This document shows, in pieces, positions 16,838-32,741 of a stretch of DNA of 64,000 bases (position 1 is its first letter; each line of letters starts with the position of its first letter). Source of the stretch: Escherichia phage KKP 3715; the sequence record OR067834.1. The stretch is one strand, 5' to 3'. The notes beneath the pieces were generated by a model. That model saw nothing but the letters and a program-made list of their open reading frames with translations, ran no database searches and was not told the DNA's origin. The translations under genes and the position numbers were made by a program.

Positions 16838-16898
16838 AACTGGCTTACTGTAGAGTAAGTTACCTATATACGATATAAGTTTGAACAGGAAACATGCT

Positions 16899-19800
16899 AT
16901 GTCAACATTTGACCGTCTGGCAGGTTTCGCAGACAGCATCACTAATGCTAAGCAAGTCGATGTCTCTACTGCAACCTCTCAGAAGCAAGCTGCACAAGGG
17001 CAAAGCCCTTTCCAATTAACCCCAGAGAATGCTTACAATCTCCAGACTGGACGAGTAGGTAATCTTGGAATCGGTGCATTCGAACCAGATTCACTTCAGG
17101 CAGATTTCACTCAAGCCTCCCCATTAGAAATCATTAATAAATACGGTAATGAGCAAGGTTTACAGATTCTTAATAGCCGAGCTAATGCTGCTGATGTTGT
17201 ACGTCAGGACTTATCTAAACAGCGTACTAACGCAGAAGCATTTGGCGATACTCTTTCTGGTGTTGGTCTTGGTGTTGCTAATACCCTTGGGGGCATTGCT
17301 GCTCTTGGCACAGGTCTGGTCAATGATAATGCCGGGGCAACCATTGCTTCCGGGATGGATTGGTTGAATGAAGGCGTACACAATCTCCAGTCTGATGCAC
17401 TGAATGCTACCCGTAAAGTTGTTCAGAATCAGAACCAGATTTCTGCTCAAAAGAACCAGAAACTCTATGAAGAAGACATCAAAAATGGGGAGAGCGATTT
17501 GGTTGCCTCCTTGTCTCGCATTGGTCGTGACGCTTTCGATTCTGTTGCTAATACACTTGATAATGGTATGGCTGCTTCCGACGGACTGAGTGAAGGGGTT
17601 GGTTCCCTCTTTACTGGTGGTCCACTTATTCGTGGTGTATCTGCACTTGGTAAAGTAATGGTAGGTGGTGATAAAGCTGTTAAGGGTATTACCTTAGCTG
17701 CTGGGTTAGGTTCACGCCCTGCACAGGTTGCATTGTCTGCTGGTCGTGTTGCTGCACCTGCTATTGCAATCGGTGGTATGGAAGCTGGTGGTGCATACCA
17801 ACAGACTGCTTCTGAAATCATGAAGATGTCCCATCAAGAATTGGCAAGCAAGTCTCCTGTTTACCAACAACATATTGCTGATGGATTATCCCCTGATGAA
17901 GCACGTCGTCAGACTGCATCTGAAACAGGTATCATTGCTGCTGGCTTAACTGCTCCAGTTGCTGCTGCTACCGGCCCATTGGTATCTCGCTTTGAACTTA
18001 ATCCACTTAAGGTAGGTTCACTTGCAGGTGCTGGTTCTAATATGCTGCGTGAGACTGTAGAGGAAGGTATTCAGTCAGGCTTTGGTCAATATGCCCAGAA
18101 CCGTGCAATCAAGGAAAATGTTGATGCATCCCGTGACGTTCTCAAAGGAGTCGGTGAGCAAGCAGGTCTGGGTGCACTTTATGGCTTCGGTAGTGCTGGT
18201 GTTGCTCAAGCTCCTGGTGCAACTGTTAAAGCTGCCGGTGCTGCTGCTGGACCTGCTCTTCGTACTACTCTGGCTGGTGCTTCTCTGGTTGGTAAAACAT
18301 TAGCAAAAGCTGCATCTCCTCTTACTAATATCCTGGTTCAACGTGGTGAAGAAGTTGCTAAGCGTAATGAACAAGCATCCCCTGTAGCTGATGCTACGGT
18401 TAATGCTGCTGCACAGGAAGCTGCTGCTCAGGCAGAGCAAGCACAGGCAACTGTACAGGAAGCAGTAGATGCAATGGATATCTCTCCAGAAGAGAAAGCT
18501 GCTGCTACCCAATATGCTGCTGACTTAACTCAGGCAATGAAGTTTGATCCAGTAGAATTGGAACAAGCTAATCCAACAATCCGTGAAGCTGTTTCTGGTT
18601 CCACTAACCGTGTAGAAGCTATTCAGAAGATGGCTGACCTGGTTAATACTGCCGAAGACCCTAACGTTCAAATGGAAGCAGCAATCCAGATGTATGACAA
18701 TATCATGTCCATGGATAGCTTCATTAACCGTGACCCGGGTGCTCTGGCTAATCTGGAACAGGGTTCCCCTGCTGCTGCAATTGTAGACCAGTTCTCTGGC
18801 CTGATGGCTAACGTACAGAATACCCCTAAAGTACTTCGTGCATTCCGTGCTATTCATTCCATGATTCAGGAACAGGCTGAAGCAGGTAAGCTGAAAGCTA
18901 CTGAAGAAGCTAACCAAGCCCAGGCAAATAACATTGCTATGGCTGCTGATGTATCTCCAGAAGTGCTGGATGCAGATTCAGTGAACATGGTTCTGAAACA
19001 TGCAAGTGAAGGTAAGATTACATTAGGGAATCGTCAACGTGCTGCCCTGCAATCTGCTGCTGCCTTGTTACAGGGTGCACGTGAGTTCGACGCTAAAGCA
19101 GAAGAACTAGGCTTACGTCCTCAAGACATTGTTAGTAAACAGATTAAAACCGATGAGTCTCGTTCTAATGAAGGACAGTACTCTGCGTTGCAACATGCGA
19201 AACGCATTCGTTCTGCGTATAACTCTGGTAACTTCGATTTGGCCTCCGCTTATCTGAGCGACTTTATGAAGTTCGCCCAGCACATGCAGAATAAGGTCGG
19301 AGCGTTGAATGAGCATTTGATTTCGGGGAATGCGGATAAGAATAAGTCTGTTCATTATCAGGCTCTCTCGCCTTCCCGTGAATGGGTACGTAGTCGTACT
19401 GGCCTCGGTGTCAATCCTTACGATACCAAGTCTGTTAAGTTTGCCCAGCAAGTAGGACTGGAGGCCAAAACCGTAGCTGATATTGCTAATGCACTTGCTA
19501 CGGCTTACCCGGAGCTTAATGTTTCTCATGTGAAAGTTACCTCGTTGGATTCACGTCTGAACAAGCCAGCTGCCCAGGTAGTTAAAGAGTTCCGTCAAGG
19601 TGGTCTTGATGCCACTCAGTCTCAACAGACTAATGAACCAGTGAATCAGGTTGATGAATCTCCTGCACCAGTGCAAGAGGACACTACTACTGTACAGCCT
19701 AAAGCTAAACCAGTGGTAGAAAATAAGACTGCTCCTACTAAGGAGACTAGTCCAAAAACAGAAGAAGTCTCTACTACTAAGTCTGAAACAGTAGAAGCTA

Positions 19801-22800
19801 CCCCCACTAATGAGGATACCATCCAGGAAGTAGCCAAAACCAAAACAGAAATGGAAACAGTGTTCCCTGTCTATAACAATGAAAAGACACCGAACCAGTT
19901 CCTGAAAGCATTTACCTTACCAGAGGAACCTAAGTCTCGTACCGTTGGTTCTGAATCTCCTTTGGCTGATATTAAGCAAGCACTGTCTTCTGTTGCTCGC
20001 TTTGAGGCATTTACTCAAAAAGAAAATAACGTTCTCACAGGTGATGTGATTAAGCGTTATCAGGACTTAATGGACTTTGGGGAAACTCTGAAGACTACTT
20101 TGTCTGAACGATTGGCTAAGTTCCTTGCTAATAAGAACGTTGGTAAACGTTTTGCAGAAGGTACTGAAGCTAACCGTTGGGTAGGTGGCAAACTACTTAA
20201 TATCGTTGAACGAGATGGTGACACCTTTAAGTTTAATGACCAGTTGTTAGAGACTGCTGTACTTGCTGGTCTGCAATGGCGACTGACTGCTACACAGAAT
20301 GCTGCCATTAAAGACATGAAAGATGTGGCTGCTATTACTGGTGTAGAAGCATCTTTGTTACCAGAAGGTATTCTGGCTGAGTTTGAGAATGCCCAGACTC
20401 TGGTAGAAGCTACTAACTCACTGGCTCAGAAGATTGAATCCTACTGGGGTTTAAACCGTAATCCTAATGCACCACTTGGGTATACAAAAGGCATCCCAAT
20501 GGCAATGGCTACAGAGATTCTGTCTTCCCTCATTGAGATGGGTGAAGTTAAAGAATCTATGCTGGATGTGTCCGAGATTGACCCAGACTCCAATAAGACT
20601 GTCGGTCTGTATACTATTGAGAAGCTGGATGACAACGATGCCATTAACAAATTCCCTACTGCTATTGAGGAAGCTGTCCTCTTAGAACCAGAAGAGAAAA
20701 TGTATTTTGATGATGATATTCCTTCTGTGGCTCAAACTCAGTTGCGTAACCCTGCTGTTAAGAATACCCCAGAACAGAAAGCTGCACTTAAAGCTGAACA
20801 GGCTACTGAGTTCCGTGTACATATGCCGATGGTTAACTTCTATGAAGCATTAGGCCGTGACAACATTCTGGAACTGATGGGTGCTGGTACTCTTAATCCT
20901 GATTTGCTGAATAAAAACACTGCCAAATCTTTGGAAGGTAAAAACCTGTCCGTATCCATGGCATATGATTCTCTGTTCGGTGTAATTAATCAGATACGAG
21001 AACAAGAGAATGGTCTGGATACTCCTATTCACTACGGTTACAACATGACTCGTGTAGGTCGTATGCAGATGCTTGGTAAGAACAACCCACAATCCAGTAA
21101 ACTGGTTCGTGAAGCAATTCTGCCGACCTTCTCTACTATCGACTTGAGTAATGAAAACAGCCAAGCATTCTCTGACTTCCAGCTAGGACTGGCTCAGGCA
21201 TTAGGCATCAAGGTACATAAAATGTCACGTGAAGCTATGTCTGAAAATCTGACCAAAGCTCTGGAAGGCAATCTGAAGCCTGCTGTTGATATGATGGTTG
21301 AGTTTGATAAGGCTGGTTACTTACCTACTGATGCAGTAGATATTCTGAAGACTTCTCTGGGTGATAACAAATCCTTCGTGGCTCTCATGGCTCTGATGGA
21401 ATATGCCCGTTACCTGAACAGTGATGACCGTGCTAATTTTACTACTCCCTTGTACGTTGAAGCTGATGGTGTAACCAACGGCCCAATCAACGCAATGGTA
21501 TTAATGACTGGTGGTAAGTTCACGCCCGACTGGATTAAGAACACTGCCAAAGGTGGTTTGTTCTTTGGTCGTGCTGGTAAAACGATGAACGAACACTGTT
21601 CTATCGACGATAATGTTGACTTGTATGAAGCATCTACCAATGGTCTGCAACAAGCACTGAATGAGTTACGTACTACTTACCGTAACAACGTTCCGGTTAT
21701 GAGCCAGATGAATCATCTCCAGAAGTTAATGGACTTGTTCATTAAAGACTTTAATCTGAACGAAGACGGTACTCTGGACCTGAAACGTGGTATCGCTAAA
21801 AACCCACTGACCATTACCATCTATGGTTCTGGTGCACGTGGTATTGCTGGCAAGATGGTTAGTGCAATTACTGACACCATCTACGAACGCTTCAGTGACG
21901 TTCTGCAAGCACGGGCTGCTGACCCTAGCATTTCCCCAGCTATGGCAATGTTTGGTAAGGAGGCTGCGTCTGAGGCTGATGCTCAGGCTATGCTGGATAC
22001 TTTCCTTACTTCTATGGAAGCACTGACTGGCAATGTTCCAGTTATGCGTAAAGGTGAATTGTCTATTCAGCAAGTAGATGGTGCTCTGACTGGTAAGTTA
22101 GACCCTCAGAAGTTTACCGTATCCGGTAATGCTCTGAAGAACTTACAAGAGAACATGCTCCACCTGTTCGTTGAACCAATGCGTACCGGTATCCGGAATA
22201 CTGTTGGTGAAGGTCTGATGCACTCTACTGAGAATTTGCAGAAGGCTACCCAGATTCAATCTCTGGTATTGCAGGATATGTTCCAGCAAGCAGTACAGGC
22301 TAAGCTGGCAGAAAAAGAAAAAGACCCAACCTGGAAGAAGGGTGATTTCTTAACGCAGAAAGAACTGAATGAAATCCAGGAATCATTATCTCCACTGGCT
22401 CCAATGATTGAGACTGGCTCACAGACTTTCTACATTGCTGGCAGTGAGAATACTGATGTTGCTAACCAAGTACTGGCTACTAACTTAGATGATCGTATGC
22501 GTGTGCCAATGAGCATCTATGCTCCTTCACAGGCAGGTGTTGCAGGTATTCCATTTATGACCATCGGTACTGGTGATGGCATGATGATGCAGACCCTTTC
22601 TACTATGAAGGGTGCTCCGAAGAATACCCTGAAAATCTTTGATGGTATGAACATTGGTATCAGTGACATTACTGATGCAAGTCGTAAAGCTAACGAGGCT
22701 GTATACACTTCCTGGCAGGGGAACCCTATCAAGAATGTTTATGACTCCTACGCTAAGTTCATGAAGAATGTAGACTTCAGCAAACTGTCTGATGAAACCA

Positions 22801-25800
22801 AACAGGCTATCGCTAAATCTGCTCTGGAATATGACCTGCGTGAGGGTGCTACCGATGACCTGTTACGTGCAGGTGCTGAACAGATTGAACGTAACCTACG
22901 TAACATTGCTCTGGGTGTAGATATTCGTCACAAAGTGATGAACCAGGTACAGACCACTGTTGACCAGATGGCTGCTGTAGGTGCTCCTTATGTGAACAAC
23001 GGTAAAATCTCTCTGGAAGGTCTGACTGTAGACCAGCAAGTAGCTAAGCTAAACGAACTATTTGATGCTGAATTAAATAAGCGTCGTGATGCAGTACGTG
23101 CTGCTAAAGCAGAACCTGTTAAAGAAGTGCCAGCTATGGAACAAGTTGGTCGTGTACTGAAGTCTGGTGTACGTCTGTTGTCTAATACTGCTATCACTAA
23201 GCTGGCTAAAGAGATGACTTCTGAACAGCAAGCAGTATTGAAAGAAGTACAGAAATCCCTTGCTGCTAAAGACTACAAGGTTGTTTACGGTACTCCTGCT
23301 CAACTGGATGCTTATGCTATTGAGAAGAACATTACTCGCCCAGCACCGGAAGATATTGAAGCTGCCGAAGCTGGTAATGCATATGGCTGGACTAACTTTG
23401 ATGATAAAACCATCTACTTAGTTACCCCTTCCTTAGAGACTCTGGTTCATGAATTAGTACATGCTTCTACTTTTGAATCTGTACTGGCTCACTATGAGGG
23501 TACTCCTAACGAAGCAGTCCAGAACATCGAAGATCTTATGAACCAGTTCCGTACTCTGGATGTTAAGAACGAATCCCCGGCAGTACGTGAAGCATATGCT
23601 GATGCACTCAATACCATTAACGGTCACTTGTCTAATGGCTTTATTGAACCTGCAATGGCTAAAGCTGCTGCACTGAATGAGTACATGGCATGGGGCTTAA
23701 CCAATCGTGAACTGATTGGTAAGCAGAAGAAGACCACTGCACTGAAAACTATGGTTCAGTCTGTGTATGAAGCAATCAAGCGTCTGGTATTTGGTCGCAA
23801 GAAAGCACCTGCTAATGCAGATGATATGTTCTCCGGATTACTGTTTAACTCTTCAGTAGTTATGCGTGGGCAGGCTCCTACTGCTGCTGTATCCAAAGAC
23901 ACTACCTTGTTCCATAACAAAGCATATGGAGATAATACCCGTCTTGAAGAATTGGGGCAGACCTTTGATAAGCTGATTACTAACTACATTGGTTCTGAAC
24001 CAGTGCAGCAAGTAATTCGTAAAGGTAAGTTCTCTGATGCAGTAGTGAATGCAACTAAAGTAACTCGTGATGTTCAGGCTTATGGCTTTACCATGAATAT
24101 GCAGGAACAGCGATTGTTCACTAATATCGTTGCTGCTTTGGCTACTGAAGCTGCTATTAGTCCGGCTGCTCTTTCTCGTGCACAGGAATACTATGCACAC
24201 GTTACTAAGAACCTGACCGTTGAATCATTCATGGCTGACCCGGATAGTACTAACCCTGCTGACCGTTACTATGCTCAACAGAAGTTCGATACCATCATGG
24301 GTGCTAACAATATTGAGTTTGATGCACAAGGTCGTTCTTCCTTACTGCCTACCTTTGTTGGTCTGGCAATGGTAAGTGAAGAGGTGCGTAACGTACTGGC
24401 TAACATTCCTGTTATGAAAGCAGATAAGAAATCTGGTAATACCGTTGATGCAATGCTGACTAACATTGGTACTGCTGCAATGTCTAGCCTGAACGCTCGT
24501 GTAGCAGGTGATACCAAAGCTACTAACGTACAGGAAGGTATGGATGCACTGGCTCAGACAATCATGCAGACAAGTCTTAATGCACAGTCATTCTATGATT
24601 CCGTTGCTACTCCTAGTGGTAATGCTATTGACCGTGCTAACCAGTATCTGGTGGATTCTATTGATGCACTGTCTACTCGTGCTTTAGAAAGTGCTCGTGA
24701 AGTTGCAGCTAATACCAAGAACCCATTGGTTAAGGGTGCTGCTCATGCTGCACAATTGGTGGCTGCTATTGCTACTGAGAAGAACGGTGCAATCGTGGCA
24801 GAAGGTGTTATGGCTGCAATGAACCAGGGCAAGGTATGGCAACCTTTCCACGACTTGGTTAATGACTTAACTGGTCGTACTAAGAGCAATGCTTCTGTAT
24901 ACGATTTGATTAAAGCAGTTCGTGCACAGGTACAGGCTGACCGTCAGCAGTTCCGTGAACATCTGCCTACCACTATCGCATCTAAGTTCAGCCGTAAGCT
25001 GACTAACGATGAGTGGAAAGCAATGCACACCGGTATGGGTAAAACTGACTTAGCTGTTCTGCGTGACACTATGTCTCTGGCTGAAATCCGTGACCTGCTG
25101 TCTGACCAGAAGATTGTTGACCGTGAAGTGAATAAGCTGGAAGCAGATTTGCAGAAACAAGCTGGTCGTAACTGGCCTCTGATTAACCGTAAATCTAAGC
25201 AACTGGCTCAGTACATGATTAACGGTACGGTCGGTAATAACCTGCTGCGTAATGCTACTGCAATCTCCCGTATGCTGGGTGAACGTCAGGCTGCTCGCTC
25301 TACTGTAGATGTAGCTCAACTGGATAAACTGATTACCCTGTATGCACTGGAAGCAATGAACAAGTCCGACCGTGAGACGTTATCTTCACTGGCTCAGACA
25401 GAAGTTGAGGGAATGGACTTTGCTACTTCTTACCTGGTTGGACAACGTAAAGATGAAATGGCTAAAGCCAAGTCTGATATGCGTGCAACCCTGAACCAGT
25501 ACAAAGGGCATATTCCTAGTGAGACTAAACAGGGTGTTAATCTGATTGTTGCTGAAGATAGCCAGTTTGCTGATTTGATTGAGAAGTCCTATGTACGTCT
25601 GGGTACTTATCAAGGTAGCTCTGCTAACCGTGGTCCGGCACGTAGCTATTACTTTGCACCAGTACAGGCACAGGCTCCTTTCTCACAGGGTATCCTACAG
25701 AACGTTCGTAATACTGCTGGTGGTGTAGACCTCGGCACAGGCTTTACGATGGGTTCCATGGTAGCTGGTCGTATTACTGACAAGCCTTCCGTAGACCGTA

Positions 25801-27251
25801 TCACTAAAGCACTGGCTCGTGGCGAACGTGGTAATGAACCACTGCTGCCTGTATATGACGATAAAGGTAATGTAGTTGCCTATGAGCAATCCATTGACCC
25901 TAATATGCTGAAGCACATTGAGGGTGAGAACCATCTTGCCCGTGCAATCGGCGTATGGCGTGGTCGTCAGGTGGAAGAAGCTAAGGCTCAGCGTTTCAAC
26001 GATATGCTGATTGAGAACCTGCATAGCATGTATGAGAACGACATTAAGATGTCTGCCTCTAATAAGTCCCAGTACGTTAACCTTCTTGGTTCTAAATTGG
26101 ACCCAGTAACTGCTGATGCTCTTAAGCTAATGAATAGTGAAACCCGTCAGAAAGCAGAGAGTTTGTTCGGTGAGGGTGAACTGTGGGTACGTCGTGACAT
26201 GCTTAATGATGCACTTGGTTATCGTGCAGCTTCTGTAGGTGATGCCTGGTCTGGTAATTCTCGTTGGTCTCCGGAAACATTGGATACCTTTAAGAAAGCT
26301 ATGCTGGGTGTATTTGGTAACCGTGCCTATAAGTACACAATGGGTGGTGAGAACCTGGTTCAAAACTTAGTTAAAGAAGCTAAGACTCTGATTGTAGTTA
26401 AGTCAGTAGTCGTACCTGCTGTTAACTTCTTAGCTAACCTTTACCAGATGGTTGCCCGTGGTGTACCGGTTAAGAACATTGCTAAGAGCATTCCACAGAA
26501 GACTGCTGAGATTAACCAGTACCTTAAATCACGTCTGCGTCAGGTAGATGCAGAAGCAGAATTACGTGCAGCTACTAACCCGAACCAGATTCGTAAACTT
26601 AAGGCTGAGATTCAGTCCATTACTGATAGCCATAAGCGTATGAGTATCTGGCCTCTGTTGGAAGCCGGTGAGTTCTCTTCAATTGCAGACGCTGGTATTG
26701 GTCGTGATGACATCCTGATTACTGAAGGCAAACTCCACGAATACATGGATAAGCTGGCAGATAAGTTACCTAAGTCTGTGCGTACTGCCGGTCGTTATGC
26801 ACTTATTACTAAGGATACTGCTCTGTTCCAGGGTATCCAGAAGACGGTTGAGTACTCTGACTTTATCGCTAAAGCAATCATCTATGATGAACTGACTCAG
26901 CGTAAAGGTAAGACTCGTGAAGAAGCACTTGGGCGTGTAACGGAAGAGTTCGTTAACTATGACCGTTTACCTGGTCGCTTCCGTGGGTACATGGAAAGTG
27001 TTGGTTTAATGTGGTTCTACAACTTTAAGATTCGTTCAGCTAAGGTTGCTGTGTCCATGATTCGTAATAACCCTGTACATGCAACAATGGCGATGCTGGC
27101 TCCAACTCCTACCATGTTTGGTAACGTTGGCTTACCTATTCAGGACAACATCTTTAGTATTGCTGCTAAGGGTAGTCTGGATTACTCATGGGGCTTTGGT
27201 CAGGGTCTTCGTGCTCACAACCTGAACCCTTGGATGAACCTGGTAAACTAA
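16899..27251 (+). CDS. virion-encapsidated RNA polymerase (N4 vRNAP-like giant protein)
   Basis: About 3450 codons from the first ATG (AGGAAA RBS). Contains a single-subunit RNAP motif B-like RGIAKNPLTITIYGSG (Rx3Kx7YG) and a motif A-like EADGVTNGPINA; T/E/P/K-rich low-complexity linker near codons 910-990. Size and position match N4 vRNAP as recalled. Confidence 0.7.
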   Translation: MSTFDRLAGFADSITNAKQVDVSTATSQKQAAQGQSPFQLTPENAYNLQTGRVGNLGIGAFEPDSLQADFTQASPLEIINKYGNEQGLQILNSRANAADVVRQDLSKQRTNAEAFGDTLSGVGLGVANTLGGIAALGTGLVNDNAGATIASGMDWLNEGVHNLQSDALNATRKVVQNQNQISAQKNQKLYEEDIKNGESDLVASLSRIGRDAFDSVANTLDNGMAASDGLSEGVGSLFTGGPLIRGVSALGKVMVGGDKAVKGITLAAGLGSRPAQVALSAGRVAAPAIAIGGMEAGGAYQQTASEIMKMSHQELASKSPVYQQHIADGLSPDEARRQTASETGIIAAGLTAPVAAATGPLVSRFELNPLKVGSLAGAGSNMLRETVEEGIQSGFGQYAQNRAIKENVDASRDVLKGVGEQAGLGALYGFGSAGVAQAPGATVKAAGAAAGPALRTTLAGASLVGKTLAKAASPLTNILVQRGEEVAKRNEQASPVADATVNAAAQEAAAQAEQAQATVQEAVDAMDISPEEKAAATQYAADLTQAMKFDPVELEQANPTIREAVSGSTNRVEAIQKMADLVNTAEDPNVQMEAAIQMYDNIMSMDSFINRDPGALANLEQGSPAAAIVDQFSGLMANVQNTPKVLRAFRAIHSMIQEQAEAGKLKATEEANQAQANNIAMAADVSPEVLDADSVNMVLKHASEGKITLGNRQRAALQSAAALLQGAREFDAKAEELGLRPQDIVSKQIKTDESRSNEGQYSALQHAKRIRSAYNSGNFDLASAYLSDFMKFAQHMQNKVGALNEHLISGNADKNKSVHYQALSPSREWVRSRTGLGVNPYDTKSVKFAQQVGLEAKTVADIANALATAYPELNVSHVKVTSLDSRLNKPAAQVVKEFRQGGLDATQSQQTNEPVNQVDESPAPVQEDTTTVQPKAKPVVENKTAPTKETSPKTEEVSTTKSETVEATPTNEDTIQEVAKTKTEMETVFPVYNNEKTPNQFLKAFTLPEEPKSRTVGSESPLADIKQALSSVARFEAFTQKENNVLTGDVIKRYQDLMDFGETLKTTLSERLAKFLANKNVGKRFAEGTEANRWVGGKLLNIVERDGDTFKFNDQLLETAVLAGLQWRLTATQNAAIKDMKDVAAITGVEASLLPEGILAEFENAQTLVEATNSLAQKIESYWGLNRNPNAPLGYTKGIPMAMATEILSSLIEMGEVKESMLDVSEIDPDSNKTVGLYTIEKLDDNDAINKFPTAIEEAVLLEPEEKMYFDDDIPSVAQTQLRNPAVKNTPEQKAALKAEQATEFRVHMPMVNFYEALGRDNILELMGAGTLNPDLLNKNTAKSLEGKNLSVSMAYDSLFGVINQIREQENGLDTPIHYGYNMTRVGRMQMLGKNNPQSSKLVREAILPTFSTIDLSNENSQAFSDFQLGLAQALGIKVHKMSREAMSENLTKALEGNLKPAVDMMVEFDKAGYLPTDAVDILKTSLGDNKSFVALMALMEYARYLNSDDRANFTTPLYVEADGVTNGPINAMVLMTGGKFTPDWIKNTAKGGLFFGRAGKTMNEHCSIDDNVDLYEASTNGLQQALNELRTTYRNNVPVMSQMNHLQKLMDLFIKDFNLNEDGTLDLKRGIAKNPLTITIYGSGARGIAGKMVSAITDTIYERFSDVLQARAADPSISPAMAMFGKEAASEADAQAMLDTFLTSMEALTGNVPVMRKGELSIQQVDGALTGKLDPQKFTVSGNALKNLQENMLHLFVEPMRTGIRNTVGEGLMHSTENLQKATQIQSLVLQDMFQQAVQAKLAEKEKDPTWKKGDFLTQKELNEIQESLSPLAPMIETGSQTFYIAGSENTDVANQVLATNLDDRMRVPMSIYAPSQAGVAGIPFMTIGTGDGMMMQTLSTMKGAPKNTLKIFDGMNIGISDITDASRKANEAVYTSWQGNPIKNVYDSYAKFMKNVDFSKLSDETKQAIAKSALEYDLREGATDDLLRAGAEQIERNLRNIALGVDIRHKVMNQVQTTVDQMAAVGAPYVNNGKISLEGLTVDQQVAKLNELFDAELNKRRDAVRAAKAEPVKEVPAMEQVGRVLKSGVRLLSNTAITKLAKEMTSEQQAVLKEVQKSLAAKDYKVVYGTPAQLDAYAIEKNITRPAPEDIEAAEAGNAYGWTNFDDKTIYLVTPSLETLVHELVHASTFESVLAHYEGTPNEAVQNIEDLMNQFRTLDVKNESPAVREAYADALNTINGHLSNGFIEPAMAKAAALNEYMAWGLTNRELIGKQKKTTALKTMVQSVYEAIKRLVFGRKKAPANADDMFSGLLFNSSVVMRGQAPTAAVSKDTTLFHNKAYGDNTRLEELGQTFDKLITNYIGSEPVQQVIRKGKFSDAVVNATKVTRDVQAYGFTMNMQEQRLFTNIVAALATEAAISPAALSRAQEYYAHVTKNLTVESFMADPDSTNPADRYYAQQKFDTIMGANNIEFDAQGRSSLLPTFVGLAMVSEEVRNVLANIPVMKADKKSGNTVDAMLTNIGTAAMSSLNARVAGDTKATNVQEGMDALAQTIMQTSLNAQSFYDSVATPSGNAIDRANQYLVDSIDALSTRALESAREVAANTKNPLVKGAAHAAQLVAAIATEKNGAIVAEGVMAAMNQGKVWQPFHDLVNDLTGRTKSNASVYDLIKAVRAQVQADRQQFREHLPTTIASKFSRKLTNDEWKAMHTGMGKTDLAVLRDTMSLAEIRDLLSDQKIVDREVNKLEADLQKQAGRNWPLINRKSKQLAQYMINGTVGNNLLRNATAISRMLGERQAARSTVDVAQLDKLITLYALEAMNKSDRETLSSLAQTEVEGMDFATSYLVGQRKDEMAKAKSDMRATLNQYKGHIPSETKQGVNLIVAEDSQFADLIEKSYVRLGTYQGSSANRGPARSYYFAPVQAQAPFSQGILQNVRNTAGGVDLGTGFTMGSMVAGRITDKPSVDRITKALARGERGNEPLLPVYDDKGNVVAYEQSIDPNMLKHIEGENHLARAIGVWRGRQVEEAKAQRFNDMLIENLHSMYENDIKMSASNKSQYVNLLGSKLDPVTADALKLMNSETRQKAESLFGEGELWVRRDMLNDALGYRAASVGDAWSGNSRWSPETLDTFKKAMLGVFGNRAYKYTMGGENLVQNLVKEAKTLIVVKSVVVPAVNFLANLYQMVARGVPVKNIAKSIPQKTAEINQYLKSRLRQVDAEAELRAATNPNQIRKLKAEIQSITDSHKRMSIWPLLEAGEFSSIADAGIGRDDILITEGKLHEYMDKLADKLPKSVRTAGRYALITKDTALFQGIQKTVEYSDFIAKAIIYDELTQRKGKTREEALGRVTEEFVNYDRLPGRFRGYMESVGLMWFYNFKIRSAKVAVSMIRNNPVHATMAMLAPTPTMFGNVGLPIQDNIFSIAAKGSLDYSWGFGQGLRAHNLNPWMNLVN

Positions 27252-28280: not shown

Positions 28281-28319
28281 AATAAAAAAGTCCCCCAGAG
28301 TGACGGCTCTGAGGGACTT
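28281..28319 (-). terminator. Rho-independent terminator closing the tRNA-containing transcript
   Basis: On the - strand: imperfect GC-rich hairpin (GTCCCTCAGAG...CTCTGGGGGAC) followed by TTTTTTATTT. Confidence 0.5.
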
Positions 28320-28551
28320 AGTGACTTTAACGCAGTCAACGAGGCAGGCCGTCAAACTACTATCACTACAGGGTTAAGCGACCATGGGTTGATAGCCCGA
28401 TAGTAGTAAGACGTAGGTTTGGATTTCTAAGTGTTACCTTCACTAGCGAAATTCCCGTCGAGGGGAATAACAATACATTAGCAGCCACTGGACTGTCTTA
28501 CCAGTGTTGTCTTTAGAGTGCTGTGCAATCAGGACTATGTTACTGCTGAAT

Positions 28552-28628
28552 GGGTGTCCACTACTGGATTTGAACCAGTGACCTTCTGATTATTAGTCAG
28601 TTGCTTTCCCAGTCTAAGCTAAGTGGAC
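28552..28628 (-). tRNA. tRNA gene, isotype undetermined (anticodon loop reads CUAAUAA)
   Basis: Hand-folded on the - strand: 7-bp acceptor stem GTCCACT/AGTGGAC, D-stem GCTT/AAGC, perfect T-arm ACTGG-TTCAAAT-CCAGT, discriminator A, then CCCA. Anticodon stem has 4 bp plus an A-A mismatch. Confidence 0.5.
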
Positions 28629-28637
28629 ATAATATGA

Positions 28638-28710
28638 TTACCCGGGCAGGAATCGAACCTGCGTCCTAGTTAGTTTACTAGTGGGGCTTTACCACTAAGC
28701 CTACCGGGTA
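28638..28710 (-). tRNA. tRNA gene, isotype undetermined (anticodon loop of 6 or 8 nt, not 7)
   Basis: Hand-folded: 7-bp acceptor stem TACCCGG/CCGGGTA, D-stem GGCT/AGCC, T-arm GCAGG-TTCGATT-CCTGC at canonical positions 49-65, no encoded CCA; lies 9 nt from the previous tRNA. Confidence 0.45.
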
Positions 28711-29524
28711 TTAATGGAAGGGTAGTGCAGCCTTACACTGCCACAGATTGACTGCCTCGTAACTAGTACGAGCTACCCATAATAGGGTGAGGCTGTACCT
28801 CTGGGTGTAGCAGCCCAGTGTTGTGCACCTACTGTAGAACATAAGTACAGCCTCAATTAGGTGAGTCATGCCAGGCTCTAACTGGCTCCTTCTTCGCAAT
28901 CCTTACATACCCCTACATAATTATTGCGTTAAGCTTTTTTTGTTTAAGTTTAAGTGAAGGCGTTCTTGCTGACTCATTGTTTGGTTTCCTGATTACATGG
29001 GCTTCCACCATATCATGACGAGTTTGAGTCTGTGGAGCGACTTCCTCAATGCAGTTACCTGCCACCAGTAAACTGGCGTTCTTTGGTCCATCGTCTTCAA
29101 CCATACTGTCTTAACCATATAGGGATTCAGGCAGTTTTGGCGGTAATCAGGAAATCTGGTTTGAGATGGGAGTCCGAGTCCTGTACAGCCTTACCGTCTC
29201 CACATTGGCAGCGTATCTAGAATAGCACTTCCGGGTACGGATTTAACTGTTACATCTCAAATAGGGTAGGGGCGTCCAGAGGTTTCATCTAGTACTTACG
29301 CCGTCGTATTTACGACTTACCCCCATAATTCCTTTAATCCAAAGAAATAATCTTTAAATATTCTCTTGTTAGATGAGGAGTTTGACGAATGACTAGTTCG
29401 TTACTACCTCGTTGTTTGCCATAAGTACCTGGCGACTTCTATTTGGTTTTACCAATTCAGAGTAACACTCACACAAGAATGTGTCTTTGAATACCGGGAA
29501 GTATAAACGAGTGCTACTTTGAAT

Positions 29525-29648
29525 TGGTTACCAGTGAAGGATTCGAACCTCCGGTTGGAGTCTATAGCTTACCGCAGCAGCCCTCCAATCTAGCGGTGTC
29601 ACACTTAGTCCAAACTTGAACATGTCAAGCCATCTCGTGCAACTGGCA
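29525..29648 (-). ncRNA. tRNA-like element, about 121 nt (T-arm, acceptor stem and encoded CCA; over-long body)
   Basis: 3' end GGAGG-TTCGAAT-CCTTC then ACTGGTA-A-CCA; the only good 5' partner (TGCCAGT) lies about 120 nt upstream; internal hairpins (CTTGA/TCAAG, TTGGAG/CTCCAA) sit where D and variable arms would be. Confidence 0.3.
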
Positions 29649-29650
29649 AT

Positions 29651-29716
29651 TGGTTCCGGCGTCTGGACTCGAACCAGAACACTCATGTCGTGCACGACAC
29701 TAGTACCTACACCGGA
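29651..29716 (-). ncRNA. tRNA-like element, about 63 nt plus CCA (no D-arm, palindromic central hairpin)
   Basis: T-arm TCTGG-TTCGAGT-CCAGA, acceptor TCCGGTG/CGCCGGA with one G-U, encoded CCA; the centre is the palindrome TGTCGTGCACGACA rather than an anticodon arm; abuts the previous element with a 2-nt spacer. Confidence 0.3.
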
Positions 29717-29779
29717 ATAGTTGCCAGGGATTCCACCTGGCTCCATCTGTTTTTATAGTCACTCAGATATCGTCTGGAC

Positions 29780-29860
29780 TATGACCATCTGGGGATTCGA
29801 ACCCTCATCTCGGTGGCCAACCGTGCATTTGCCTCATGCTACTCTGGTCATAGTTGGTCC
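29780..29860 (-). ncRNA. degenerate tRNA-like element
   Basis: Contains GGGTTCGAATCCCC (a T-loop with GC stem) and a D-arm-like GCAT-GAGGCAA-ATGC, but acceptor and anticodon stems pair poorly by hand. Confidence 0.2.
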
Positions 29861-30530
29861 CCCGTTTCTAATACATGGACGGGAGAACTCCACGATCGTT
29901 TGTTAATCAGGACGACTCACTCCTGACTGAGGTTACGCTGTTAGGCGACCATCAGATACGCTTCTTCGTTTGCATTTATGTTATTGGTTCGTTTCTAAAA
30001 AACCGCATAATCGCTACGAAAACTATCAATGAGTACACTCTGTGGATTCATTTTACAGGGACTTCATTTCATTCCCTGACCTCAATCAAATGTACTCATT
30101 GATAGCCCATAATAGGAGGGAGGGGACGAATCCTCCCTTTATACCCTATGTTGCATGTAAGATCTAACAGTTCGGTGTTGTAGACGGATGGGCTTATGCT
30201 TACCGGCATTAAACTCCCGCCCCCTTATTGGGCTGGGTTAATTAATATACTCAACATTGAGCAGTTAGTTTGATAAGGGATCTGAAGCCTTATCCCAAAG
30301 ATACTAACCTTTGGGATATAGCCTAAGATTCAGAAATGGCCCCTATAGGAGAGGCCATTGATTAACCCGAATGTTGCTTTACATTTTCTGAGGTAACCAA
30401 TTCTTAAAATAGTCTGTCTGACGGATGGGGGGCCACCCCTAGCGTCAGTGCCATACGGCAAAGATTAAGTTAAGAAAGGTTATGATAGGAGTTCCTATCT
30501 CAAAGGATTCTGACAGAACCCTTCACGATA

Positions 30531-30701
30531 TTAACTACTCTTTTTCAATGCTTCAACTTCACCATCTTTATACCAAGTATAAGGTATTAAGATTTTGCAG
30601 CCTTCTGAATCAATGTGGAATGCTTTGTTTCCTTCAGCGGGTTCTCCACCCATGAAAGAACTAACCTTTCCATTGAGCCAGTGAATAGTAAATTTGTTCA
30701 T
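30531..30701 (-). CDS. hypothetical small protein
   Basis: Track ORF 30531-30797; an internal ATG at 30701 (MNKFTIHW...) with a GGGG RBS is more plausible. Weak call. Confidence 0.25.
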   Translation of the reverse strand: MNKFTIHWLNGKVSSFMGGEPAEGNKAFHIDSEGCKILIPYTWYKDGEVEALKKSS

Positions 30702-30932
30702 ATTAACCCCGATTGAACCAATGGACTGGGGAGAGTATTCCAATCCACTGGTTCGGTTGTTGTTATTCTGGCGGCTTGTCACCACCGTGTTTACCACTGC
30801 ATTTCCACAGGATAATGACAGTGATGATAAAAGCTATGTATGGAGCCGACACGTCTATAATCCTGACTAGTAGTAGCATCAGGACTATAAACACTACCAC
30901 ACCTAGCAGCAGCTTCTGAGCCACCTACCAGA

Positions 30933-31383: not shown

Positions 31384-31938
31384 TTATGCCTTTATTAATT
31401 TAATGAGATTCTGGAAAGCTGGGAGATTTACCCCAGCGTGGATTGCACCGATTGCATCAGCTAAGTGCTCATTTTTATTCAGAAGTTTACCCTTCTTATC
31501 CGTGAGCCAGTTGGCTTCAGGATAGATGGCATGAGCAGCACGAATCATCGTGTCTTTGGATGCAGTTTTATCACCGACCAGTGCAAGTTTGTTTTCAATT
31601 GGGGATACTTCAAAGATTGGGCAACCCAATGCACGGAATGCACCGATTAGTCCTACGCATACACCATAGGACTTCATACCGTTAGCAGACTGAGAGCCTA
31701 CTGGTACTTCTACAAATACTGCTTTAGCAGACCGTAACCATTCCTCACAACCAAGAAACAAATCATGGGCAGCTTGTATATCTTTGGAGTTGGTTCGAAC
31801 TTGTTTGTTGTGGTCAACTTCAGTTTGAACCAGTTTAAGTTCGACCTGCTCAAAGACACCAGACTCAATGTCCAGCATCCCACGAGCTAATCCCCAATTG
31901 CGGAGGCTAATGTCTGCACCGACAATTGGGATTTTCAT
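31384..31938 (-). CDS. RuvC-like Holliday junction resolvase
   Basis: 184 aa; N-terminal KIPIVGADISLRNWG (acidic residue in a beta-strand) and C-terminal HLADAIGAIHAG resemble the RuvC/YqgF catalytic strands; start overlaps the upstream stop (TAATG). Confidence 0.5.
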   Translation of the reverse strand: MKIPIVGADISLRNWGLARGMLDIESGVFEQVELKLVQTEVDHNKQVRTNSKDIQAAHDLFLGCEEWLRSAKAVFVEVPVGSQSANGMKSYGVCVGLIGAFRALGCPIFEVSPIENKLALVGDKTASKDTMIRAAHAIYPEANWLTDKKGKLLNKNEHLADAIGAIHAGVNLPAFQNLIKLIKA

Positions 31939-32741
31939 TAACGTTTACCGAACAGAGATTTACCACCGGCTGGAGTAGTACCTGTGCCAGCACCTGCACC
32001 CGGTTTAGGAGGCAAGCCACCTTTACCATTACCACCAGCAGAACCCTTGGTCTTATCGCGGGTTTTACCTTTGTTCTTTTCCAGCCATGCTGCATAGAAT
32101 ACAGCCAGCTCTGGAGTCAGTTCTTTCTCAGCCTTCTCTGCTTCCTGAGCCTCGACGACTGTGACCAGCAGTTCCGGATGAAACACTTTCTGAATCTCGT
32201 TTACTTCACGAGTTTCGCCGGAGTCAACATAACCGTTGTCACCTTTAACCTGCTTAGCTTCCAGAACCTTTTCCAGAGCGAAGGTAACAGTCTGACCAAC
32301 CAGGTCAACTGGAACCATGACAGACTTATTGGTTTCAGCTTTCAGATCGAAGTCATAGACTTTAACAATCTTCTCTTCGAAGTCTGCATCCGGCAGTTCA
32401 CAACCAGTAGCCATAAGCATCATGTCATTAATGACAGTGTAACCAGGCAGGAAGTATTCTTTACCATTCTTCTCGTAAGTAGGCTTATTGCCTTTAGCAT
32501 TACCAGAGGTAAAGTACACCTGAGCACGGAACTCACCAGCATCATTGCCGTCAGAACCTTTCAGGTTTTCAATGATTAACTGCATCCAGTCTGCACCAGA
32601 GTCAGCTTTACCTACGTAAGCTACTTTTACAGTACCGGTGTAGATATCAGATTCTTTTGCACCGAAGCCACCACCACCAAGGGTGTCTTTTGCAGCTTCA
32701 ACGTTTTTGGTCTTTTCTTTCAAGTTACCGAACAGTGACAT
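31938..32741 (-). CDS. putative single-stranded DNA-binding protein (N4 SSB-like)
   Basis: 267 aa, Gly-rich N- and C-terminal tails, AGGAAA RBS; size and position next to the resolvase and ATPase match N4 SSB as recalled. Confidence 0.4.
   Translation of the reverse strand: MSLFGNLKEKTKNVEAAKDTLGGGGFGAKESDIYTGTVKVAYVGKADSGADWMQLIIENLKGSDGNDAGEFRAQVYFTSGNAKGNKPTYEKNGKEYFLPGYTVINDMMLMATGCELPDADFEEKIVKVYDFDLKAETNKSVMVPVDLVGQTVTFALEKVLEAKQVKGDNGYVDSGETREVNEIQKVFHPELLVTVVEAQEAEKAEKELTPELAVFYAAWLEKNKGKTRDKTKGSAGGNGKGGLPPKPGAGAGTGTTPAGGKSLFGKR

Follow-up and report, generated by a model that had tools for sequence, protein, structure and literature searches.

Positions 28320–30530 of the 64,000-nucleotide (nt) stretch of Escherichia phage KKP 3715 analyzed here (sequence record OR067834.1; "the window") raise a simple question: what does a tightly packed phage genome keep in about 2.2 kb without an evident protein gene? 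Annotation either takes such phage stretches to be empty or populates them with spurious tiny open reading frames (ORFs). Sequence and comparative evidence, on which all functional statements below rest, indicates that the block is likely a minus-strand polycistronic array of small genes for structured RNAs, located at the transfer RNA (tRNA) cluster site of N4-type phages. It consists of about 20 modules of 60–250 nt arranged head-to-tail on that strand, made up of two tRNAs, seven stem-closed units, long hairpins, conserved multi-hairpin RNAs, and one RNA, M2, that resembles a transfer-messenger RNA (tmRNA). The suggestion of the initial annotation that the block may hold further non-coding RNAs is thus strongly supported: the three intervals it had left unexplained (28320–28550, 28720–29520, and 29900–30530) resolve into modules conserved in relatives, most of which have predicted structures. 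The array belongs to a known kind, the phage cluster of tRNAs and stable RNAs, and its new content appears to be the tag-encoding tmRNA-like RNA, a set of CCA-ended tRNA mimics, and a two-hairpin element, M3a, that is found across phage families. Conserved RNA genes are densely packed here, and some of them are common to otherwise unrelated phage families.

The RNA nature of the modules is apparent from their helices. Homologues from relatives were analyzed by consensus folding (alifold) with covariation counts, and the structures of most modules are supported by compensatory changes together with strand-specific G·U pairs. Cells with G·U outnumber those with A·C in the predicted helices by ratios such as 45:1, 25:1, 16:0, and 10:1. 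Because G·U lies far above A·C, the helices belong to minus-strand RNA, not to the DNA or to the opposite transcript. The comparison set comprised 20 Enquatrovirinae loci retrieved via a neighboring protein of 184 amino acids (aa). Individual modules, measuring 60–190 nt in this comparison, are strongly conserved among these loci, and their presence, absence, and order vary. Nucleotide identity to N4 is 70–71% for the flanking genes, 94% for module M3, and 91% for module M6b.

The locus itself is recognizable across the N4-like group. A 3456-aa ORF at 16881–27251 (plus strand) of the window corresponds in both size and location to the virion RNA polymerase (vRNAP) of N4, minus-strand genes run from 64000 down to 27286, and the gene order of the window agrees with that of N4. 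The best genome matches of the block and its flanks are in Gamaleyavirus (G7C-like; Schitoviridae, Enquatrovirinae), with 87–96% identity. The RefSeq record of phage N4 has an equivalent unannotated gap between gp47 (ends 32112) and gp48 (starts 33632). Canonical tRNAs (Asn, Ser, Thr, Pro, Gln, Tyr, Asp, and Gly) occur at the matching site in relatives, and in N4 and others they are interspersed with the modules described here. Since these canonical tRNAs sit among the modules, the block is the tRNA-array locus of the N4-like phage group, dominated by non-tRNA RNAs. Its features are given below in the direction of the minus strand.

30306–30530, minus strand: 5′ leader of the array, with hairpins at 30420–30446 and 30338–30356; conserved only in Gamaleyavirus.
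30108–30305, minus strand: M1c, a run of hairpins including GGGAGG..CCUCCC, with 75–80% identity to phiEco32-like phages (Gordonclarkvirinae).
29857–30105, minus strand: M2, the tmRNA-like RNA, ending in ACCA at 29860–29857.
29941–29973, minus strand: tag frame of M2, ANEEAYLMVA*.
29775–29853, minus strand: g23, a degenerate tRNA-like unit with a 9-bp acceptor-type stem CUAUGACCA/UGGUCAUAG and the T loop UUCGAAU, followed by UCCA.
29718–29780, minus strand: M3a, a two-hairpin element of ~60 nt.
29651–29716, minus strand: M3b, a 66-nt tRNA-like unit with a 7-bp acceptor stem, the T arm UCUGG[UUCGAGU]CCAGA, and ACCA.
29525–29648, minus strand: M4, a 124-nt tRNA-shaped RNA with a 7-bp acceptor stem, discriminator A, and an encoded CCA.
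29451–29528, minus strand: 20-bp hairpin starting from the ACCA of M4, 90% complementary, with 38 nt between the arms.
29377–29439, minus strand: M5, two small hairpins conserved in Gamaleyavirus.
29262–29325, minus strand: M6a, a tRNA-sized unit with a 7-bp closing stem, two hairpins, and the 3′ end ACCCUAUU.
29157–29261, minus strand: M6b, with a 9-bp closing stem UUUGAGAUG/CAUCUCAAA and then ACCA; 91% identical in N4.
28986–29156, minus strand: g67, a 171-nt multi-hairpin RNA with an 11-bp closing stem and the hairpin GG[UGGAAGC]CC.
28859–28976, minus strand: M7, with a 7-bp closing stem UGAGUCA/UGACUCA and a 3′ CCU.
28785–28855, minus strand: tRNA-sized unit with stem arms of 16 nt, 88% complementary, and the core GAGGCUG/CAGCCUC, followed by ACCCUAUU.
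28715–28779, minus strand: M8, three-arm and cloverleaf-like, with a 6-bp closing stem, ending in UUCCA.
28638–28710, minus strand: tRNA with a 6-nt anticodon loop and no encoded CCA (ARAGORN "tRNA-???"; RF00005, 41.7 bits).
28551–28629, minus strand: tRNA-Ile with anticodon AAU (A34) and the 3′ end ACCCAUU (ARAGORN; RF00005, 66 bits).
28479–28546, minus strand: M11a, a two-step hairpin GCAGU..CACUGG[UAAGACAGU]CCAGUG..GCUGC.
28413–28478, minus strand: M11b, adjoining M11a.
28350–28413, minus strand: 15-bp hairpin directly upstream of the terminator, an inverted repeat that is 87% complementary.
28288–28319, minus strand: intrinsic terminator ending the array, with the stem AAGUCCCUCAGAG/CUCUGGGGGACUU and then UUUUUAUUU; conserved in Gamaleyavirus relatives.

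M2 is the tag-encoding member of the array. It was first signaled by sub-threshold matches to tmRNA models at 29894–30071 (tmRNA_permuted, 25.1 bits, E = 0.015); the other Rfam signals in the block are the tRNAs, antisense images of tRNAs (a plastid untranslated-region model), and chance-level microRNA and snoRNA matches. Its parts follow one another as a 15-bp hairpin, a hairpin or possible pseudoknot, AUAAAU, the tag frame, a stop-codon hairpin, a hairpin termed H5, and an H-type pseudoknot. Directly after AUAAAU comes GCA AAC GAA GAA GCG UAU CUG AUG GUC GCC UAA, which encodes ANEEAYLMVA*. No ATG, GTG, or TTG lies between the upstream in-frame UAG and this GCA, so the frame opens without a start codon at a resume-like GCA and runs for 10 codons to an in-frame stop. 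A profile search of the collected loci recovered at least 43 distinct M2-family copies, all of which begin with GCA AAC and have exactly 10 codons plus a stop. They specify 15 tag variants, such as ANDDVVLMAA, ANEEMYLAVA, ANDEQFLAVA, and ANDDLMLAAA. Entropy at codon positions 1, 2, and 3 is 0.73, 0.55, and 1.26 (24 distinct nucleotide versions), and one and the same tag peptide is encoded by up to four nucleotide sequences. Leu7 is CUG or UUG, Ala10 is GCC, GCU, or GCG, and all three stop codons (TAA, TGA, and TAG) are used; both alternative frames of the tag region contain stops. Third-position variation, synonymous versions, and the constant length of 10 codons argue that selection acts on the tag peptide of the M2 family.

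The structures around this frame are also maintained. In the 15-bp hairpin just 5′ of the M2 core, 30105–30091 pairs with 30037–30023; 13–15 of the 15 pairs are kept in the five relatives worked through, with compensatory changes at several positions. An alignment of 31 sequences places the stop codon in the loop of a small hairpin whose outer pair shows four pair types, gives 13–16 double changes per pair in H5, and has both stems of the 3′ H-type pseudoknot (7 + 5 bp) paired in 87% of cells. Over the supported M2 helices as a whole, 81% of cells are paired and 70 show double changes, compared with 36–48% and 12–24, respectively, when partners are slid, and the family alignment contains conserved G·U columns. 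In the hairpin before the resume codon, pairs 86–106 and 87–105 are G-C in 25/26; its outer stem covaries between subgroups but is misaligned. RNAalifold applied to the same family recovered only H5, with no pseudoknot prediction and with subgroups misaligned. Two other helices were set aside. A helix "P2" (AGUGC/GCACU) competes for the same bases as pseudoknot S1, which fits better (87% versus 70% of cells paired), and the strands of a terminal stem CAGUGCUCUUUCC/GGUAAGAGCAUUG that might close the HK620-type RNA do not always co-occur; instead, both strands make up a hairpin 3′ of the core in BUCT541 and HK620.

Comparison with bacterial tmRNA (RF00023; permuted forms RF01849–51 and RF04321) shows both what M2 shares and what it lacks. 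Both have a GCA resume codon, which in M2 follows the conserved AUAAAU, and no start codon, and both place the stop in a small hairpin loop, flank the frame with structures, and carry a downstream pseudoknot. The Escherichia coli tag ANDENYALAA likewise has 10 codons, the pattern AN[D/E][D/E]..L..A, and an Ala/Val-rich C-terminus. The M2-family profile aligns without gaps to nt 75–126 of E. coli ssrA (resume region, 10 codons, and stop), and sub-threshold tmRNA-model matches fall on M2 units in the window and in five other phages. In contrast to bacterial tmRNA, no tRNA-like domain with a G3:U70 acceptor stem or a T arm was found in M2, which is at most about 250 nt long instead of 363 nt; tags of its family end in MVA, MAA, AVA, or AAA rather than LAA, and the family resides in tRNA arrays or operon leaders of phages, not beside smpB. 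In topology, the 3′ H-type pseudoknot of M2 followed by ACCA is like the acceptor pseudoknot of turnip yellow mosaic virus (TYMV). The N4-like M2 end forms a 12-bp pseudoknotted helix plus ACCA, matching an acceptor/T minihelix in length and 3′ end, without G3:U70. The T1-like copy begins at the core, directly at its own promoter, and has no 5′ acceptor strand. By these features, M2 would work like the messenger half of a tmRNA, and it does not qualify as a member of the tmRNA class.

Several ways of accommodating M2 among complete or host-derived tmRNAs were considered and rejected. A recent copy of host ssrA was rejected on the basis of BLAST, in which E. coli ssrA matches only 8–13 nt at the tag start. 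A complete one-piece or permuted tmRNA is not supported, because the domains proposed by relaxed ARAGORN are inconsistent between phages, the program taking differing neighboring sequences in different phages for the tRNA-like domain. The loop of the 5′ hairpin of M2, moreover, varies by sub-lineage and has no T loop or CCA. No earlier description of an M2-type RNA or of its tag peptides was found in the literature searched, nor any account of a phage-encoded tmRNA or of tRNA-like RNAs in N4-like phages.

M2-like RNAs extend far beyond the N4 group. A BLAST search for distant matches to the M2 part of the block returned 311 phage records well outside Schitoviridae, and the family is hosted by N4-like, T1-like, P22-like (HK620), Ackermannviridae, and other phages. 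In HK620 the RNA lies in the late leader, between qut and tQ; in Ackermannviridae it lies in tRNA regions; and in a T1-like Klebsiella phage it is preceded by a TTGACA-17-TAGATT promoter of its own and lies shortly before a tRNA cluster. Shigella phage DS8 carries a copy as well. Among complete E. coli genomes, 350/5426 contain M2-like RNAs, with 219 sites on plasmids (~95–115 kb among those listed) that may be phage-plasmids; annotation underlies the match in 2/25 E. coli rows among the matches listed. A scan of IMG/VR with a 14-nt pattern gave mostly chance matches, which were filtered with a profile hidden Markov model. Within the N4 group, M2 is carried by PhAPEC5, Bas96, and ECBP1, among others, and is absent from G7C (L007), pSb-1 (L004), and N4 (L013/L082), which keep other modules. 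It behaves as an accessory gene, exchangeable even inside a single genus.

Some surroundings of M2-like RNAs in these phages are worth recording in their own right. Klebsiella phage KpS110 (Ackermannviridae; L095 2498–2711) has a 2.2-kb unannotated gap with an M2-like RNA, and this gap also matches the small RNA family STnc100 (RF02076; 48.7 bits, gathering threshold 47). In HK620 and BUCT541 (L092 1423–1500 and 1673–1766; L094 1672–1770), a helix of ~13 bp, GGUAAGAGCAUU...(50–75 nt)...AGUGCUCUUUCC, brackets or separates modules. Its GUGYWCUC strand also forms the 3′ arm of the 15-bp hairpin that precedes the M2 core in the window, and the helix may serve as a common separator of the RNase III type. 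Downstream of the helix, BUCT541 has a further unit with the 7-bp stem GUUGUGG/CCACAAC plus ACCA, which abuts a tRNA-Ser.

Several other units of the array look like tRNAs at one end. Only two tRNAs pass both ARAGORN (default) and Rfam, at 28551–28629 and 28638–28710, both on the minus strand, and only the former has a 7-nt anticodon loop; the homologue of the latter is annotated as tRNA-OTHER in phage PBM-2. Six of the seven stem-closed units end in ACCA, ACCC, or UCCA, and M7 ends in CCU; M2, the unit at 28785–28855, and tRNA-Ile are also stem-closed and end in ACCA, ACCC, or UCCA. Six copies of the motif ACC[A/C](N)AUU are present on the block's minus strand, or 2.7/kb versus 0.34/kb elsewhere in the window, and each copy lies at the 3′ end of a stem-closed unit. 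T loops of the form UUCGAAU or UUCGAGU are present in M4, M3b, and g23. In M4, the T arm is GGAGG[UUCGAAU]CCUUC, and hairpins of 42 and 34 nt replace the D and anticodon arms without leaving a 7-nt anticodon loop; of its 39 pairs, five show changes on both sides, including three consecutive acceptor pairs, and many are G·U. M3b, which belongs to the N4-conserved module M3, has a single long hairpin where the D and anticodon arms would be; four of the 23 pairs of M3b show changes on both sides, and it appears as "tRNA-Undet" or "tRNA-OTHER" in some database records. M3b and M4 have no 7-nt anticodon loop and therefore cannot decode. The 3′ end of g23 overlaps the start of M3a, its T stem is weak, and its homologues lie in L010 and in L015/18/19.

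Standard searches do not classify these units as tRNAs. M3b, M4, g23, M6a, M6b, M7, and M8 have no RF00005 match at E ≤ 10, and none is called by ARAGORN at default settings; g23, M3b, and M4 are called only at thresholds of 70–80% or with introns allowed, g23 as tRNA-Ala(GGC) only at 80%. A home-made scanner for an acceptor stem, T arm, and CCA was abandoned as too unspecific, with ~1 match/kb genome-wide on both strands; only three perfect matches were used. Known tRNA mimics include the tRNA-like module of the bacterial Y-RNA-like YrlA, viral 3′ tRNA-like structures of the TYMV type, and mascRNA, and the geometry of acceptor stem, T arm, and CCA is read by RNase P, the CCA-adding enzyme, and other tRNA-binding proteins. 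M3b and M4 are alike in keeping this geometry while the decoding half is replaced. They differ from the known mimics in having no sequence or covariance-model match; the sole YrlA match is at chance level (E = 0.18) and lies over real tRNAs, and no Ro/Rsr gene is present. Judged by their design, the look-alike units would work like tRNA mimics, not tRNAs. Those without an anticodon loop are most likely, if speculatively, processing handles or mimics or decoys for tRNA-binding host factors, and with their CCA ends they are candidate decoys of host factors that target tRNA.

The tRNA-Ile of the window has an unusual wobble base that recurs elsewhere. In bacteria, A34 is normally confined to tRNA-Arg(ACG). 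Phage tRNAs with wobble A include Ile-AAU in the window, Cys-ACA in ECBP1-like phages and phiMAM1, and Pro-AGG in phiMAM1, at 28551–28629 (minus strand) of the window, L008 8180–8258, and L093 1266–1357 and 3082–3155. These may be non-standard decoders or non-decoding mimics.

M3a, which lies between M3b and g23, represents a different kind of module. Its first hairpin is AGUC-CAGA[CGAUA]UCUG-AGU-GACU, its second has the T-loop-like loop UGGAAUC, and the linker is UAUAAAAACAGAUGGA in the window and UUUAAAAACAGAUGGGA in most relatives. Over 14 pairs, 95.5% of cells are paired compared with 14–39% with slid partners, and five pairs show changes on both sides. M3a also lies between late genes of Salmonella phage 9NA and has copies in Shigella phage DS8, Klebsiella siphoviruses, prophage-like phages, and 15 E. 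coli genomes; its sites outside the window include L084 1501–1556, L085 1501–1556, L088 3001–3064, L089 3001–3064, and L090 2501–2564. In the two E. coli genomes inspected, it lies just 3′ of a prophage gene for a CI/LexA-type repressor, at the head of the early-left operon. This placement at the putL/nutL position suggests a cis-acting transcription element, which would make M3a a candidate new one.

The put RNA of phage HK022 is a processive antiterminator (PMC9378689), and M3a resembles it in several respects. Both have two stem-loops and about 60–70 nt; the position of M3a in E. coli and Klebsiella prophages, after a CI-like repressor at the head of the early-left operon, is that of putL; and AGACGA, CUUUAAA, and GGGAGC occur in a shared order (by eye). 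M3a differs in having no significant sequence similarity, a much shorter Stem II, and no CAGGAUGA motif, which is seen by eye in both putL and putR. In addition, M3a of the window lies mid-array rather than promoter-proximal and is maybe transcribed by a phage polymerase. With no sequence match in HK022 and only short ordered motifs in common, the comparison of M3a with put RNA is kept as a weak analogy.

The loop UGGAA(U/G)C, closed by G-C pairs, recurs on the minus strand in M3a (29765–29783) and g67 (about 28994–29010). The sequence GUGGAAGCCCU is also present in E. coli tmRNA (ssrA nt 202–212, L216), and the loop has the U...A spacing of a T loop. The recurrence may mark a common docking site for protein or RNA, or be due to chance.

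Lacking a good internal sigma-70 promoter, the array would be transcribed by read-through from the SSB/replication gene cluster that precedes it. In minus-strand order, the SSB gene (31938–32741), two more genes, and one small gene come before the block, and three small genes convergent with the end of the vRNAP gene lie 3′ of it. Processing of the transcript would then follow that of tRNA precursors: RNase P would generate the 5′ ends of the tRNA-like units, 3′ ends would be trimmed to the encoded CCA, and RNase III would cut at long hairpins, releasing stable small RNAs. Five long hairpins of 15–21 bp lie between units or at unit edges, and the one at 29451–29528 is a candidate either for processing by RNase III or for separating modules. 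The 10-codon frame of M2 would be read by a trans-translation-type resume at GCA after AUAAAU, adding the phage-specific SsrA-tag variant ANEEAYLMVA to stalled nascent chains. Possible routes to the ribosome are the pseudoknotted ACCA end or a partner RNA from the array, and an untranslated decoy is a further possibility. A broader proposal, which we offer tentatively and hold as possible rather than probable, is that several unrelated families of enterobacterial phages carry undescribed compact tmRNA-like RNAs without a tRNA-like domain. These would redirect or supplement host trans-translation with the degron variant AN[D/E][D/E]xxL[A/M][A/V]A, the N4-like copy being part of a mobile, shuffled toolkit of tRNA mimics released from the tRNA array by processing. 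A tag under peptide selection without a tRNA-like domain may point either to a new way of delivering a tag template or to phage manipulation of ribosome rescue and proteolysis. Such a strategy, if true, would be relevant to defenses that cleave tRNA or mRNA and stall ribosomes.

The nearest precedent for an array of this kind is the tRNA cluster of phage T4. That cluster includes stable RNAs known as species 1 and 2 (RNA C and RNA D), of roughly 120–140 nt, and is made as a precursor transcript from which host tRNA-processing enzymes excise the products; we know of no function for the extra stable RNAs. The two arrays are alike in that tRNA genes are interspersed with other small stable RNAs. 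Unlike in T4, non-tRNA units of the window greatly outnumber tRNAs (2 of ~20), are shuffled among relatives, and include a tag-encoding RNA.

A number of points weigh against the array as reconstructed and against the tmRNA-like role of M2. M7, M5, M11b, and the leader have little or no covariation, their homologues being nearly identical; M7 shows no compensatory change because its homologues are 95–99% identical. Most units fail the standard tRNA tests (RF00005 and ARAGORN default), and the strong conservation of modules may partly reflect recent horizontal exchange rather than purifying selection. Transcription, processing sites, and unit stability are all inferred from the sequence. For M2, the candidate pseudoknot GUUUU/GAAAC before the resume codon involves invariant bases and is uninformative for covariation. 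Model scores on M2 units are low: RF04321 gives 24.9–27.3 bits and RF00023 gives 11–11.7 bits against gathering thresholds of 47, and RF01850 gives 13.8–18.1 against 84. No consistent tRNA-like domain with a G3:U70 acceptor stem was found in cis in 45 contexts, ARAGORN calls a tmRNA on M2 only at thresholds of 80–90% and with inconsistent tRNA-like domains, and the terminal ACCA is confined to the N4-like subgroup of the family.

Other explanations of the block must account for the same observations. Small protein genes could be hidden in it, as tiny ORFs or a gene broken by a frameshift, and Bas96 and Mimir124 do annotate 11 and 9 hypothetical proteins there, respectively; a 40-aa ORF at 28366–28488 is intact in 5/5 full-length homologues, with synonymous to non-synonymous changes of 12:14. 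Yet the absence of any ORF above 75 codons on either strand holds on re-examination (longest 75 aa, 29875–30102, plus strand; next 72 aa), and mononucleotide shuffles of the block have a longest ORF of 92 ± 20 aa. As the real ORFs are no longer than the shuffled ones, the ORF content is that of non-coding sequence. None of the nine longest ORFs submitted (40–75 aa) matches a PHROG family; most are missing, frameshifted, or stopped in relatives, with non-synonymous changes far exceeding synonymous ones (for example, synonymous to non-synonymous 26:160 and 31:124). The ORFs also cross tRNA-like units on both strands, and those of Bas96 overlap conserved stems. On the PHROG scan and the test of ORF conservation in relatives, a hidden protein gene was rejected; the initial annotation had named such a missed gene among the findings that would refute it, and of all alternatives we give this one the least credence. 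Only slightly less improbable is a replication origin and/or a cluster of middle promoters for N4 RNAPII, with the hairpins acting as DNA-level signals. No other non-coding stretch of the window is as large as the block, which abounds in hairpins, and the promoters of N4 vRNAP are DNA hairpins. The earlier idea of an origin finds no support: the block has no iterons or tandem repeats, its GC content is 0.41–0.47 without a marked AT-rich dip, and the GC skew changes sign at ~27.2 kb, at the convergence of transcription outside the block, with no switch inside. Nor is a cluster of sigma-70 promoters supported, as four weak sigma-70-like sites are fewer than the 7.7 ± 3.1 of shuffles. The excess of G·U over A·C, 10–45 to 1, denotes one-strand RNA helices rather than DNA cruciforms, and modules of the block turn up in phages whose replication and transcription systems are unrelated.

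The block might also be a decaying tRNA cluster, made of pseudogenes and neutral spacer and functional only in its two intact tRNAs. This would fit the canonical tRNAs at the site in relatives, the damaged look of several units (the weak T stem of g23, a 6-nt anticodon loop, ACCC for ACCA ends), and the wide differences in module content between close relatives. However, two modules are 91–94% identical to N4 compared with about 71% for flanking coding DNA, stems are kept by compensatory double changes, and several modules are retained in unrelated phage families. Given this conservation, these double changes, and this cross-family retention, the pseudogene reading does not fit, and we regard it as very unlikely. 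A further alternative concerns M2 alone, which may go untranslated and mimic the messenger part of SsrA as a decoy or regulator of SmpB, S1, RNase R, or another tmRNA partner, or which may be a captured piece of ssrA. M2 has no tRNA-like domain, which to our knowledge every functional tmRNA needs, and its resemblance to ssrA is limited to the tag region. Against a purely untranslated role stand the third-position variation, synonymous versions, three stops, and constant 10 codons, the marks of peptide selection, and M2 is too dissimilar from ssrA to have been captured recently. We therefore consider this alternative rather unlikely, although it deserves more weight than those that concern the block as a whole. 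A translated M2 within an array of structured-RNA genes is preferred, and the family alignments could seed covariance models for annotation pipelines.

The other modules of the array differ in their reach and in the number of changes that inform their helices. M6b has 31 pairs, five of them compensatory, with G·U:A·C of 45:1; in a Vequintavirinae phage, it sits inside a tRNA array, with tRNA-Asn on one side and tRNA-Asp on the other. M6a has 20 pairs, one compensatory, with four one-sided changes and G·U:A·C of 16:0. The multi-hairpin RNA g67 has homologues in L011 and in Klebsiella phage YMC16/01/N133 (Casjensviridae); two sequences give 46 pairs with seven compensatory and none broken, and three sequences give 48 pairs with 14 compensatory. 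M8 (18 pairs, two compensatory, G·U:A·C of 7:1) has homologues in L002, L014, and L020. M5 is weakly supported, with 15 pairs, one compensatory, and G·U:A·C of 9:1. M7, found in Gamaleyavirus only, has 37 pairs with G·U:A·C of 25:1 and a T-arm-like hairpin, GCCAG[UUAGAGC]CUGGC, beside the 3′ strand. The junction motif of the unit at 28785–28855 lies at 28788, and this unit is found at 100% identity in L010 only.

Toward the 3′ end of the array, M11a has 16 pairs, of which 10 show compensatory changes (15 sequences), with G·U:A·C of 10:1. M11a and M11b are 75–99% identical in 19 loci and are present in N4, KP8-like phages, and other Enquatrovirinae. The "tail" module at the array end is 95–98% conserved in five relatives. 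The intrinsic terminator reads 28319–28288 on the minus strand, with a 13-bp stem containing seven G-C pairs and then UUUUUAUUU. The initial annotation had correctly recognized this terminator and had placed it before the block; because it acts on the minus strand, it instead closes the block.

At the 5′ end, two GC-rich hairpins that had been pointed out earlier are both present: GGGAGG/CCTCCC near 30117–30140, in M1c, is conserved even in phiEco32, and GGGG/CCCC lies within 30420–30446 of the leader. The M1c homologue in phiEco32 sits in an intergenic gap; M1c has 37 pairs, four of them compensatory, but 18 pairs with breaks (poor alignment). A 21-bp hairpin with arms at 30280–30300 and 30309–30329 has a distal arm that reaches from M1c into the leader. 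The leader is 81–98% identical in ten Gamaleyavirus loci, and 60 nt at its 3′ end also match L016. A 43-aa ORF at 30330–30461 in the leader is intact in 4/10 relatives.

Annotation of the locus in close relatives shows how such arrays may be read as coding. The 11 hypothetical proteins of Bas96 (PQ850623; L083 925–3316) and the nine of Mimir124 (PQ310662) are distributed across the array, measure 29–70 aa, lie on both strands, and overlap conserved RNA stems; these tiny coding sequences are very likely over-predictions. The gene that flanks the block upstream has a PHROG match and is probably shorter than its ORF. In the 88-aa ORF at 30531–30797 (minus strand), the match to phrog_14773 spans residues 33–88, and the real product is probably 56 aa, from an internal Met (about 30531–30701). 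With a 56-aa product, the non-coding stretch is slightly longer than had been stated.

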